Positions 5,116-42,317 of a DNA stretch of 64,000 nt are shown here, piece by piece (position 1 is the stretch's first letter; every line of letters begins with the position of its first letter). The notes beneath the pieces are model-generated. The model was not told the origin of the DNA. It saw nothing but the letters and a program-made list of their open reading frames with translations, and did no database searches. This stretch comes from Harriotta raleighana (taxonomy: Eukaryota), in the NCBI GenBank assembly GCA_050575255.1, contig JBNZDD010013696.1, positions 3,863,557-3,927,556 of the forward strand, read 5' to 3'. Both the position numbers and the translations under genes were made by a program.

Positions 5116-6775
5116 CGTGCCACAAACCTCTTAATGTTCTGGCCCCACCAGTCACAGGGAGTATGGAACCGTTACCTTAAAGGGAAAGGCCAATTCAAAT
5201 GTGAAATTAACCAAATTATTAATTTATTTTTCTCAGATTCAGTCGAACGTCTCAGTTCAAATTGATTCGGTTTGGAGCACATTCCTAATAAAAACTGGAA
5301 GCTTCATGTCAATAGTATTTTGCTGGACCCTAAAATTGGATTTTTCAAGCGTTGTTTTTGTGTGTTACCTGCAAATACACACAATCACTGCGCTTCACAG
5401 GGGGAAAAATGGCGCCTTTCGACATCCTCCTGATGCGAAAGGCGCCATACAAATGTCATTTGTTGCTTCTTGTTGTTGAGTCTTTGAGATTTTTTGATGT
5501 GCTGTATCAGACAGACGGAAGGGTCTTTTAGCCTATCAAAAAAGGGAAGGATTTGAGGTGGATCGGAGATGATGTCTTGACGGATTGAATTTGGGATTTG
5601 CTGGGTGACCCACTCGCTGTTAAAACAACGCTAATTTTGTTGTACAAAGGCTCGTATGCAAAGATGCCTTTGACGGCTTTGAGCTCTCCTTTGATAGAGA
5701 TTCTTCGGTGTAAACCTTAATCTTCAAACATACGTTGGATAGGATGTCTGATTTAAATGTCAGTTGTGCTAAGTAGTGAGAAGTGTGAAGCCACACAGAA
5801 AGTCAAGCAGATAACCTTGACATTTGGGACATTGGCTGCGACAATGCAAAGCCTTTTTTTTTAAAAGGGACTACATTAAGGGGTCACCTATTAGTGATGT
5901 TTTTGCTGGATGTCTGAAAGCTCGGCTTGCCTGTCTATTAAACTCAAACTACTGTGTAAACATTCCTCTGTTGTTCCTAGTCTGTACAATGGCCTAAGGG
6001 ATCAGATTTCACCTGCCTGCACATCTTCAAGCAATTATATCAATTAGTTTGAAGTCCATTTTCACATTCAAGGTTTAAAGTGGTATTCAAGACGAGGCAC
6101 TTATTCAAGAGAAATTTAGAATAGCCTCTAATTTTTACAGCTGAATACTTAAAGCAGTTTGACGTTTTATAGATGCAAGATGTTGGTTGATGTGCCATCC
6201 GACTGTATCATTATTAAAAAGTAACAATTTTATTTGAACTGTTTTTTTAATTAAAAAAAGACTTAATAGCAGGAGAAAGGGCCGGCAATCTTAACTGGGT
6301 TCGAAGGGCAGAAATTCCTTTTTGTTTCCTTCTATTTATGTGTTTATTTTTCTCTCCCCACAAAATTATTTTTGCTGCCTCGACAGTCAAGATGGTGTAC
6401 AGCAAATTGGCTTAGCAAACAAACTTAAGACTATTTTCTCACGCCTTGTGCTTTAAATAAAAAAAGATTTCTTTCCATAAGTGAGATGATTTTGAAGCGT
6501 GATGCTGTACTATCTTCAAATTGTCGCCTCTTGGTAAATATGCCTGTACATTTTACCATGAGTCTATTATTTCCAGAGAAGACAGTAATTTTAAACATCC
6601 CTGGTGTTACAAACAGAAGGCTGGATGGAGTATGGTTTCCTGAGAGGAGGGTTGTGATAAAGGCTGCAATGTTGGCTAAATTAGGATTTTAGAATTTTTC
6701 TGCTGTTTATCCCAACACTTTGCTTTAGTTCCGCTAATTCATTGGATCCTGTATAGGATTTCAAAATTGTGACCA

Positions 6776-7500: not shown

Positions 7501-8539
7501 CGCTTGCCTACAGGGTGTGAAGTACGGCATGATTAAGAGGCTGAGGCTATCCCAAGCAGCTCTCACCCCTCTCCTATTAGGTGATAAAAGGAGCGAAGGC
7601 CTGCGAGACGGTTTTGCACCTGTTCCCTCAACTAAAGGCTGGCGCCGAGCCTGAAGGGAAGCAAAAAGAGGTGTAGAAAATGAAATTCTCTAACGTAAAG
7701 GCATTACAGTAGAAAATTGCAGAAGCAGCCCTGCATTGTATTTTTGAGAAAAAATATTGATCAAATGTCTTGACCATTTAACATCTGAGTTTCGATTGAA
7801 AATTTGGGAATAGCGTGAAAATTGCAGGATCTCACAGTTTGGATGAACGTCTTGAAGGCGATTTATGTGGAGGATACATAGAAGGGAGTGATGATTTCTA
7901 ATGGAATTTCCTCCGAACCATTGCAGAACCTGAAAGCTCACATACACCTCATATAAAATGGAATAACACAGCCCTGTGTGTGAGATGGCAAATACCCTGT
8001 ATCCACTATTCCTCTTAGGTACAATCTGCATGTGACCCACCACTATAAAAAGCTTTGAGATGTTGGCCTACCTTAGGGTTATCCAACTAGTGGCCACTCG
8101 TTTTGATTTCATCCGCTGCCCTCCCTCTCTCATTTCATCTGGTTTACGGTCCACCCACTCCCTTCACTACTCCTAAATGTTTATGTGTCTGGAAGGGAAG
8201 CACACAAGTATTGCTTGCGTGGCCTGGGGACATTTCTCAAGTAGGACAACCAGCTCTCAGCAGCCAAAGGTTGGACCCACCTAACCTGTCCTACCCTGAA
8301 GGGAAGTTCAAAGGCAAGTTGTTGCTGTTGTTGCTGAGATTGTGAACTCCACAGAGTGGAGAGCATCGTTGAATGGAGGCTAACAAGTGCACAACAAGTC
8401 CCCTGGGCCAGCCTTGAGCTTGGTTCAATTATTCACAAGGCTCAGGTTGGAGCGTTCACAGAGAAACGTGCTGGCAGTGAGGCTGACACATGAACCAATG
8501 GTTACAGGCAGCTGTTGCCACTGAGCGGAAGTTTGAGTG

Positions 8540-8801
8540 ACCGGGAGCTGAGGAGAAACTTTTTCACTCAGCGAGTTGTTCGAATCTGGAATGCATTGCC
8601 TGAAAAGGTGGTGGAGGCTGATTCGATAACAACTTTTAAAAGGGAATTAGATCTTTATTTAGGGAGAACAGGTCTATTAGGCTATGGGGAGCGAGCAGGG
8701 CAGTGGGATTAAATCGCTCTTTTCAAAGAGCCGGCACAGACTAGATGGGCCGAATGGCCTCCTTTTGTGCCGTAAACTTCTATGAATCTATGAATCTATG
8801 A
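8540..8801 (+). mobile_element. CR1 LINE 3' end (ORF2 C-terminus plus 3' UTR)
   Basis: Translation LRRNFFTQRVVRIWNALPEKVVEADSITTFKRELDLYL is a typical CR1 ORF2 C-terminus; GGGCCGAATGGCCT stem; terminal 8-mer repeat (TCTATGAA)3. Confidence 0.92.
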
Positions 8802-11012: not shown

Positions 11013-12004
11013 GACGTGTCTGGGTAAGTGTGAAGCCTTCTCACAGGGCTTCCCAAATGGGTCAGAGTGCATAACTAGCAAAGCGACACAGTTTGAAGCA
11101 TATCGGGTATCTTCAGAGCGCATGGTTTACAAAAGCTGCAACTGTAGAATGGAGCCTCAATTTAGTATTTTTCAGATCCTGTGTAGTTCCCACTTTCAGT
11201 TAATGGTAAAATACAGTGCAAACGTCTGCCGGTTAAAATGCATTTACTTTTAAGTATATATCCCTTGTATATTTTTTTCCGAGCCGGTCATATGATCCTG
11301 CCTTTTTGAACTTTAATATGCGAACAATCAGTTCCACCTAATATATGTCTCGGTTTTGTCATAATACATACTCAGACAACATGCTGTTGCCCACATTTGT
11401 GAGCTTTAGATACTGCTGCCAGTCAGCCTCTGGTGGGTTATCTCCAGTGTCTGGATTTGCTTTAAGACTTGTACGTCTATCATGGTGGTGTTTCTTTGAA
11501 TGCGAGATCAAAAGAAGATGAATTCCAGCAAAAAAAAATTCCTTGTATGAAGAAAGGAACAGCCTTATGTAAACATCCCCATGACAGCTCCCAATGAGTT
11601 ATTTTACTAGAGCATTAGCGCCTGGGATGACAGACAGGCTGAGGGAGTACGTGCAAAATAACAAATCAGTCCCCCAGAGCTAGCAGGCAGTTGCCACAAC
11701 AGAAATAAGATTTCTAAAGGAATTTTGTCCCAGTTTTATTGTAAACGGTTGTGTGGCAGTTCATCTTTTTACAAGCTGTCTTTGCCACGGAGTCTTGTAA
11801 AAAGCAAGCGCTAGTTTTCTTTTTAACTGAGAGATGTTTGCGTGGAGGCATTCAACCGACCATGAAAGCAGCCGTAATGATGAATAGAGCCTAGGATAGA
11901 TTTGAGGGAAAAGTCAAGATGGGCACTGTAGGGTTTGGTTTATTTGTTATTTACTTATGTGAGCATTGCTACTGTGGAAACGGGCCTGTGAGCTGACCAG
12001 AAAG

Positions 12005-12180
12005 GGCAGCCTTCCAGTGTATTTTCATTTCAGTGTGCTTCAGCTGCACAGCACTTCCTGTTTATTCAACATCTTTACACCATTCTTCAGCCCCCGCTTC
12101 ACAGTAACAGAACAACTGCAAGATGACGGAAATTTAGAGGCTGTGAGATCTTTCGGTAAACTTCCCACTTTCTCTATAAT
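12005..12180 (+). promoter_or_regulatory. Conserved element resembling a FOXP1 alternative first exon/promoter; FOX:ETS composite ACTTCCTGTTTAT at 12053-12065
   Basis: Different frames give FQCIF, SVLQLHSTSCLF, HSSAPASQ*, KMTEI* and FGKLPTFS. These are colinear with the N-terminus I recall for a human FOXP1 isoform (MFQCVFPSSVLQPHSTSCLF...ATPASQ...KKTEI...FAKLFIFS-ALQVARQ). Recalled from memory, not searched. Confidence 0.65.
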
Positions 12181-13009
12181 TGTTTGTGTTGTTTCCAGAG
12201 TTAATCTGCCAATTATAACCATGCCAGCAAGTTCAGTAGCAGTGCTGTCGAAAGATGCAAATGTTATTATTTAATCTTAAAATGATGGCAAATTAGGTCG
12301 CGCAGAGGAATAAAAAAACATTAGGAAGAAGCAAAGTGCATTATATCATTATTAGTGTTTTATGTAAATACCAGAGATGACTGTACAGCCGGTAGAGAAT
12401 AAGTAGAGTCAAATGAGAGACAGTGGGAAACAAAAGAACAGCAAGTCTACTAAAAGTACGTGTTAATTTGCAAAATCAGATTCAACTCCATGAAAGTTGT
12501 CTCTCTCTGATTAGCATTGGGTGGTGAGCTGTTGGCCTGGCCCAGGCTGTTTGTTTAATGGTAGGAGTAATCACATGGTGGGGGAGGGAAGGGAATGGAA
12601 AGAGTGACTGAATGTATTTACTCAGATGTTATGCTGATGTAGGTGTGGAACTGAAAGTCACTGTGGGAACTGTGGGTTGCTTTTTTGTTGGTATCTTCAT
12701 TGCTCTGATGGCCATCACATTTCCCAGCTTTTTGGGTTTTGTTTGTTCTGGACGGACTATATTTGATTATTTGTCAAAAGAAGAGGTGGGGGGAGAAAAA
12801 AAGCCTTCTGTGTTTTATTTTCCAAGCATTAGTTTAGAGTTTAGCATTTTCCAGTTTTTTTAAAGCCATTAAATCTGAATTTTCTCCTTGTTGTATGACT
12901 ATAGATTGTTTTAAAAAAGCATTGGATTCAGTGGAATATCTTCATATTATTTTCTCTTTTTAGTTTACAAAATATTCTATCATCTTCCTCATTCCTGTCC
13001 CCCCACCCA

Positions 13010-13510: not shown

Positions 13511-13600
13511 GCTCTTCAAATTGCAAGACAGCTCCTGCTACAGCAACAAGCCAGTGGGTTGAAGTCTCCCAAGGGAAATGATAAGCAACCGACCCTACAG
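13511..13600 (+). CDS. FOXP1: FoxP1-like coding exon ([30 protein letters not shown]), 90 nt, phase 0/0
   Basis: Polypyrimidine tract plus CAG acceptor ending 13510; donor CAG|GTAAAG at 13601. The translation matches the FoxP motif [13 protein letters not shown]..SGLKSPK.NDKQP.LQ, and NDKQP is FOXP1-type. Confidence 0.93.
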
Positions 13601-18305: not shown

Positions 18306-18916
18306 AAATGGCACTAGTGGCTGCATTAAATATGCTGTGGAATATTTATGAAAGAGACATGCTCTTCGTGACGTCTAAATACTGACAAAATTATTTCTAA
18401 AGCCCAACAAGGTTAGTTCCTAATCTCAAACAGGAAAAGGAGTGAAGAGATCTTGAGTCCAAAATGTTGCCTCACTAATTGTTACCAGCAGAGATTTGTA
18501 ACCCTTGTTGAGCCAACAGAGAAATGCAGCATATTGGCCACCACATGACACATCCAGCATGGCATCAAGAGTAGTGCGACAATTTCAACCAATGTCCCTC
18601 TAACAACAACAACTTCCTTTTTTTATAGCTTCCCTCCCCCAGGGTAGCATCCGAGAGTGCTATAGTACGGAGTTCCTGTTCTCTGTTGTGATACACAGGC
18701 TAAGATGCTTCCTCCACTTTGATGAGAAAGATGCACGTTTACTTGTAGCCAGTTCCAGAACAGAATTGGCAGAAACCTAGAAACAGGTCACTTTATCACC
18801 TGGGATCTTAACAACAAAAATAAATATAAATTCGAAATGAATAATTTGGATTCAGTATAGTAGCGTTTGCTTCAGGATGTGTCTTGAAATGCTTCATAGG
18901 ATTTATTCATCACAAC

Positions 18917-19495
18917 CCGGCTCGACTACGTTTGTCGGCCTTCTCAATTCCTCCCTTCATAGGCTGCAGATAATCCAGAACTATGCGGCCTGTGTCCCTT
19001 ACTGCTCCAAGCTTCGTGACTCCATCTCCCTCATTCTCGCGCAAATCCACTGGCTCCGCATCCCAGAGGATTCAATTCAAGATCCTGGTCCTCACATTCA
19101 AAACCCTCCATGAACTCGCCCCACCTTACCTCTGCAACCTCCTAACCCCCTACCATCCTGCACTCCCCCTCTGCTTAGCAGGCTCCGTGACTTGTTCCAT
19201 GTCCCCCGACCCGCCCACCCCACCATTGGTGGGCGGGCCACCAGCAACTATCCACAACCTCTGGAACTCCATACTGCAGTGCCTCCACCTCAAGCCCTCC
19301 CTGCCTCCTTCAAGTCCCGTCTCAAGACTCTTCTTCAATGGTCCCATTGGACACCCCAAATTCCCCCTTTTCCCCCTACCCTCCCTGGCCCTGATCCCAT
19401 CTTGGGTCTGAAACAATGACTGTCCAGGGCCTTGGAACATCTTCCTGAATTGAAAGGCACTATACAAGTGTAGTTTTATTGTTGTTATTGTATTG
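18917..19495 (+). mobile_element. L2 LINE 3' portion (frameshifted ORF2 C-terminus plus tail)
   Basis: Frames give LHRLQIIQNYAA...ISLILAQIHWLRI / RIQFKILVLTFKTLHELAPPYLCNLL...LWNS, typical of L2-clade RT C-termini; the tail ends in (TTG)n-like repeats. Confidence 0.88.

Positions 19496-42041: not shown

Positions 42042-42317
<276 letters not shown>

Follow-up and report, generated by a model that had tools for sequence, protein, structure and literature searches.

An intronic FoxP1 element of Harriotta raleighana is homologous to a mammalian alternative exon and carries a predicted forkhead-ETS site

Introduction

Some placental FOXP1 proteins begin with an alternative N-terminus that is spliced to exon 7. 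A 64,000-base stretch of the Harriotta raleighana genome (the window) resembles the exon for that N-terminus in broken reading frames, which raises the question of whether the peptide or the underlying DNA is the older of the two, and what the DNA would do in FoxP1.

An excerpt of PMC3887110 describes exon 6b transcripts as common in lymphoma 5' RACE. It gives exon 6b as common to 64 kDa and 76 kDa Ensembl isoforms and names FOXP1-009 and FOXP1-011 as human transcripts with this exon, with FOXP1-011 given as 76 kDa. A short FOXP1 protein without exon 6 (FOXP1-iso) starts in exon 8 at M101, as stated in an excerpt of PMC5394978. Activation of lymphocytes induces short FOXP1, which is also abundant in ABC-type lymphoma, according to an excerpt of a review whose authors ask that it be made clear which isoforms are conserved (PMC9576946). 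For human and mouse, excerpts of PMC7145990 and bioRxiv 2023.02.02.526696 describe internal promoters and alternate 5' exons. Among the literature matches listed, from a search that most subscription papers fall outside, none links the exon to cartilaginous fish or dates its frame, and the deep homology of the element as ortholog of a known human exon is not in the published matches found.

Results

The element lies in the expected FoxP1 intron

Six FoxP1 coding exons, which correspond to human exons 7-12, lie on the plus strand of the window. Over the aligned pieces, identity to Callorhinchus milii FoxP1 is 89-100%, short of a complete match, and identity to two elasmobranchs is lower. The canonical start exon was not found within the 64 kb. 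The element lies upstream of exon 7 on the same strand, and 1,335 bases separate its end from that exon, in agreement with the 1.3 kb given in the earlier note. Short decayed frames at 8494-8709 and 18841-19416 resemble what we take to be remnants of LINE-type retroelements.

Table 1. Features of the FoxP1 locus in the window
Feature	Position	Strand	Basis
Conserved element equivalent to mammalian FOXP1 alternative exon (probably exon 6b); no mammalian peptide encodable	11967..12175	+	Alignments, anchor offsets
GCC where placentals and marsupial share ATG	12009..12011	+	Alignment of cat P0100, window sequence
Predicted forkhead-ETS composite site, ATAAACAGGAAGT	12053..12065	-	Exact 13/13 match to FOXO1:ELK3 k-mer RTMAACAGGAAGT
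Longest block in which all peptide-fixed bases match (a 1-base indel lies in an A run)	12053..12076	+	Back-translation alignment, anchors
Weak candidate donor TCG/GTAAAC, score 4.1	12153..12161 (cut 12155/12156)	+	Weight matrix; no in-frame ATG reaches exon 7
Equivalent of mammalian exon end, TCT/ATAATT, no GT, donor score -7.6	12173..12181 (12175)	+	Alignment and anchors
FoxP1 exon equivalent to human exon 7 (ALQIARQ)	13511..13600	+	Window sequence and protein comparison
FoxP1 exon 8, with short-form start at 42168	42150..42287	+	Sequence comparison; human M101 start (PMC5394978, excerpt)

The element is homologous to the mammalian alternative exon

The earlier note had read colinear peptide fragments in different frames as the homolog of a human FOXP1 alternative exon. 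All five fragments are present and colinear, in two frames and with in-frame stops. The human isoform described there also exists, as UniProt Q9H334-3 (P0217 in our protein set), with one early residue different from the sequence given. The 62-residue N-terminus of this isoform gave a frameshift-aware score of 101 at the element; the best score elsewhere in the 64 kb, both strands included, was 49, and none of 40 shuffled peptides scored above 66 (extrapolated P about 4e-7). The marsupial 61-residue N-terminus scored 113, with 45 as the best elsewhere (extrapolated P about 1e-12), and the tamandua and cat peptides scored 96 and 107. For these four peptides, the best scores elsewhere on either strand were 44-49, and 40 shuffles per peptide peaked at 51-66. 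The bowhead peptide was not significant in this protein test (P 0.82). With tblastn, the top two matches of the human peptide both fell at the element in different frames, with E values (0.002 and 0.005) that are modest for single pieces.

Degenerate back-translation gave identity at 73 of 87 fixed bases for human and 68 of 76 for the marsupial, that is, 83-89% at inferred fixed bases, figures that are inflated because the alignments maximize matches. Nucleotide-profile scores were 71.7 bits (human) and 60.3 bits (marsupial), whereas the maxima of 15 shuffles were 26.0 and 27.5. The mammalian DNA used here was deduced from predicted peptides only and is visible only when a gene model is in frame. 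Taken together, these alignments make a well-supported case that the element is homologous to the mammalian FOXP1 alternative exon. The span of homology begins about 40 bases farther upstream than the earlier note had placed the element.

The peptides' upstream extensions (cat, desman, and primate type) and the bowhead downstream piece gave no alignment above shuffles, apart from a marginal match of the desman extension at 5465 (27.2, shuffled maximum 24.9). A 103-codon stop-free frame at 11963-12271, whose first ATG comes only at 12221, is nothing unusual, since many similar frames occur in the window. A protein search with the window's open frame returned nothing at E values up to 10 among 14 candidates, which is weak evidence.

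The intact peptide is found in placental mammals

Our set of 332 proteins came from a search with primate exon 7 (best 120 of 198 matches) and from cluster members (15 of up to 1449). At least 17 of the 332 join an intact 62-residue alternative N-terminus to exon 7. Besides human P0217, they include entries from apes, monkeys, fox, panda, elephant seal, Geoffroy's cat, black rhino, camel, alpaca, and tamandua. Among the matches listed, none from a rodent, bat, ruminant, or cetacean has the frame intact. Across five placental orders, the peptide is identical to human at 57-61 of 62 residues (92-98%). The canonical first coding exon is less conserved, at 51-54 of 60, as expected if the DNA of the alternative exon is what is held. 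Two entries from the marsupial Dromiciops have a 61-residue N-terminus in which the first three and last four residues are as in placentals and the middle is different. The koala and Tasmanian devil entries listed have canonical or exon-8 starts only, and the peptide is absent from the cartilaginous-fish, coelacanth, sturgeon, amphibian, and reptile FoxP1 entries among the matches listed. One desman protein (P0336), named "40S ribosomal protein SA," consists of the FOXP1 alternative exon and exon 7 and looks like a misjoined or misnamed model.

In fox and alpaca, the full-length form with the alternative N-terminus is 76.2 kDa, which fits the 76 kDa given for FOXP1-011. We infer that the 62-residue exon is human exon 6b. 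Brown (2016) reportedly names its forms 6b(s) and 6b(L).

Other N-termini are also joined to exon 7. An 11-residue alternative N-terminus occurs in three sharks (P0010, P0067, and P0085) and snapping turtle (P0282) with 7-8 of 11 residues identical, a hint of another old alternative exon that is possibly coding. A placement of this N-terminus by eye at 11975-12004 was rejected, because scores there were low (5.1-9.6 bits) and the window has 13-108 peaks as high. Two further shark N-termini likewise had no placement in the window. Several models (P0006-P0009, P0080, P0199, P0240, and P0309, from sharks, paddlefish, sturgeon, and sheep) join a single Met to exon 7, so that an upstream exon ending in ATG is implied.

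The reading frame probably arose after the DNA

What a coding alternative first exon would have is missing from the element: GCC stands in place of ATG, no open frame is in phase with exon 7, and there are in-frame stops. ATGs within 11900-12200 are found at 11919, 11957, and 12123, and none of them reaches the FQC codons without a stop, in line with the earlier note. The distance from the ATG position to the exon end is 167 bases in the window, compared to 186 in human and 183 in the marsupial. Between nine anchors, the offsets relative to the window are +1, 0, 1, 1, 0, 9, 4, and 3 for human and tamandua and +1, 2, 1, 0, 0, 9, 0, and 3 for the marsupial, so that the indels are not confined to triplets, as the earlier note had suspected. 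At two indels, where human and tamandua have +1 and +4, the state of the window is that of the marsupial; at one, where the marsupial has +2, it is that of placentals. By this comparison, two frame-shifting insertions are placental only. The marsupial start and splice end are those of placentals, and the frames between them differ.

Codon periodicity is also absent. Marsupial-fixed bases match the window at 25 of 29, 15 of 16, and 28 of 31 sites for human codon positions 1, 2, and 3, respectively; third positions are thus conserved like first and second ones, and 14 of 15 four-fold sites fixed by the marsupial peptide match. Since the frame-shifting insertions are placental only and third positions are equally conserved, what is ancient appears to be the DNA and not the peptide. 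Constraint on the DNA outside placentals is shown by these alignments, in line with the earlier note's proposal, and the mammalian peptide likely arose after the DNA element. As in conserved noncoding elements, we found non-triplet indels and no codon periodicity, with the mammalian DNA deduced from peptides. In the desman gene model, the element carries an additional base, and the bowhead model changes frame there. Both models are automated; the indels fall in short base runs and may be errors of assembly. The anchor test failed for bowhead.

By parsimony, the ATG of the marsupial-placental ancestor would have been 181 bases from the exon end and out of frame with exon 7. In-frame states would then have been reached separately, in placentals by +1 and +4 (186 bases) and in Dromiciops by +2 (183 bases). 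This reading relies on one outgroup, the window fish, and on predicted peptides. The earlier note had suggested that the human peptide was a by-product or a late exaptation. The late origin of the frame is supported, but the frame is placental and common to primates, carnivores, rhino, camelids, and anteater. An intact frame in five placental orders leaves room for later selection on the peptide.

A predicted forkhead-ETS site sits in the best-kept block

The sequence ACTTCCTGTTTAT lies at 12053-12065 on the plus strand. Read on the minus strand, it is the same at all 13 bases as the CAP-SELEX k-mer taken as reference for FOXO1:ELK3 (excerpt of PMC6949242), so the composite FOX:ETS site proposed in the earlier note is present as a predicted site. 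The k-mer has one match in the 64 kb against 0.01 expected, and 1 of 100 shuffles matched. All 13 bases agree with mammals; every one is fixed by one or more of five mammalian peptides (pooled over three frames). The earlier note had called the motif the best-kept part; it does fall inside the best-kept block, but the perfect block runs on to 12076, and there is no mismatch either in a further two 13-base stretches, 12031-12044 and 12092-12104. Other sites in the element therefore probably matter as well. De Val (2008) is said to have described an endothelial FOX:ETS motif.

The window site is one base from a test sequence, GTAAACAGGAA, that is given as noncooperative in the same excerpt of PMC6949242, so ETS help may not be needed for a forkhead factor to bind. 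In vitro, FOXP2 binds TGTTTAT only about 3-fold below its optimum, as given in an excerpt of PMC3695516. With an affinity this near the optimum, FoxP binding at the predicted site is plausible by analogy. Among the literature matches listed, none gives direct support for FoxP autoregulation at the site. A FOXP2 ChIP peak near FOXP1 (excerpt of PMC3695516), which lies 100 bases from the NM_032682 start, was rejected as support. Taken alone, the 8-mer AACAGGAA shows no enrichment (6 occurrences, 3.9 expected).

Further forkhead-type sequences occur nearby. The interval 11560-12310 holds six forkhead-type 7-mers compared to 2.24 expected, which is only suggestive as the interval was picked after looking. 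Two such 7-mers, at 11941 and 11948, are directly upstream of the element. A second, looser forkhead-ETS match, GAAAACAGGAAG, lies at 26887-26898 in the intron after exon 7.

Exon use in the fish is doubtful

The donor that the earlier note had proposed, CG/GTAAAC, is present and weak, as it had said, but it lies 20 bases upstream of the equivalent of the mammalian exon end, where there is no GT. With a generic donor weight matrix, the best four GT sites in 11940-12300 score 5.7 (11958), 4.8 (11987), 3.9 (12142), and 4.1 (12155), compared to 7.9-10.1 for the six real FoxP1 donors in the window. An in-frame ATG (11919) is available to just one of these candidates, 11987. By eye, the cat and desman peptides diverge from the primate-type one at an acceptor-like site some 45 bases upstream of the mammalian ATG, which suggests that mammals can also enter the exon by splicing. 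The fish has TG where mammals have the acceptor-like AG (by eye). Because neither the mammalian donor nor this AG is kept and the candidate donors are weak, exon use in the fish is doubtful. No CpG island (observed/expected ratio, 0.33) and no Rfam family was found at the element, and its RNA fold is no better than shuffles (z score, 0.90; 164 of 200 fold as well).

FoxP1 annotations in Callorhinchus, sharks, and rays include short isoforms that start with MMTPQ. These isoforms fit internal 5' ends, without locating them. An out-of-frame ATG at 13578 in exon 7 opens a 14-codon frame that runs into 42150-42171; in ATGA, the stop of this frame and the start codon of exon 8 overlap. This layout of overlapping frames could tune translation of the short isoform.

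Discussion

We think it reasonably probable, judging from sequence, that the element is ancient and cis-regulatory, with a core for forkhead and ETS factors, that it drives or boosts the internal transcription giving rise to short FoxP1, and that the peptide came later. Forkhead and ETS factors would bind the 13-base core, and the element would probably promote transcripts whose translation starts in exon 8. We draw its connection with internal promoters and the short isoform from mammals. The ancestor of placentals and marsupials would have had an ATG out of frame, and the frame would have been gained later by insertions. A bolder version, which we put forward tentatively and regard as doubtful, makes the element an internal promoter of short FoxP1 as old as jawed vertebrates, set by an ETS factor and FoxP at one 13-base site. 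The ATG, out of frame in the marsupial-placental ancestor, would have been brought in frame twice, giving two unrelated peptides, and the human isoform 3 peptide would be a shadow of regulatory constraint.

The same DNA could act purely as an enhancer, at a distance on FoxP1 promoters, with the exon gained only in the mammalian line through an ATG, an acceptor, and a donor. The absence of a GT at the homologous donor and of an ATG, the weak candidate donors, and the lack of a CpG island all point this way, as does the finding that none of the tested alternative shark N-termini lies significantly at the element. However, ATAATT at the exon-end position differs from the donor consensus GTAAGT at two of six bases, which fits a decayed donor, and the short isoforms annotated in cartilaginous fish make internal 5' ends likely somewhere. 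The DNA constraint and the late peptide are common to this account and to the promoting element favored above. We consider a pure enhancer unlikely. Quite improbable, in our estimate, is a role at the RNA level, in which the stretch would serve as a 5' untranslated region or in splicing or translation control of the short-isoform mRNA and the motif match would be incidental. The stretch is exonic in mammals, and by the parsimony reading, the ancestral ATG would open an out-of-frame upstream open reading frame. Yet neither an Rfam family nor a fold better than shuffles was found, the best-kept block contains the exact k-mer of a transcription factor pair, and splice signals are the parts that were not kept.

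An old coding exon, its peptide ancestral, decayed in the fish, and scrambled in the marsupial, would account for an open frame that is 92-98% identical across five placental orders and for a UniProt human isoform, Q9H334-3. We judge it very unlikely, as fish and marsupial agree at the two indels needed for the placental frame, there is no codon periodicity, and the peptide is absent among the non-mammal FoxP1 entries listed. The modest E values of single tblastn pieces are what chance resemblance or assembly error would have in its favor. The joint scores are far above their nulls, so chance is refuted; the match sits in the expected intron and orientation; and errors would have to account for six indels, for in-frame stops, and for the absent ATG together, with two of the indel states recurring in a marsupial. 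We give this account next to no credence.

If our favored reading of a promoting element is right, FoxP1 has a precise candidate control site of 13 bases, roughly 450 million years old. The 92-98% identity of the placental peptide probably reflects constraint on DNA. This matters for isoform annotation and for whether human variants in the alternative exon are read as regulatory rather than missense. Human exon 6b and the class of conserved elements were already known, which limits the surprise.

Among known systems, human exon 6b (Q9H334-3) is the closest likeness. Sequence, intron, and orientation correspond. In mammals, the exon is spliced to exon 7 and has an ATG, an open frame, and a GT donor, whereas the window element has none of these three. 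The exon-8 start of the N-truncated human FOXP1-iso is also present in the window, and any transcript from the element would use it, barring the weak donor at 11987. Conserved noncoding elements that cartilaginous fish and mammals have in common close to developmental regulators are like the window element in being about 200 bases long, intronic, and open to indels of any length. Unlike them, this element is annotated as coding in placental mammals, and so it would probably be masked from catalogues of noncoding elements.
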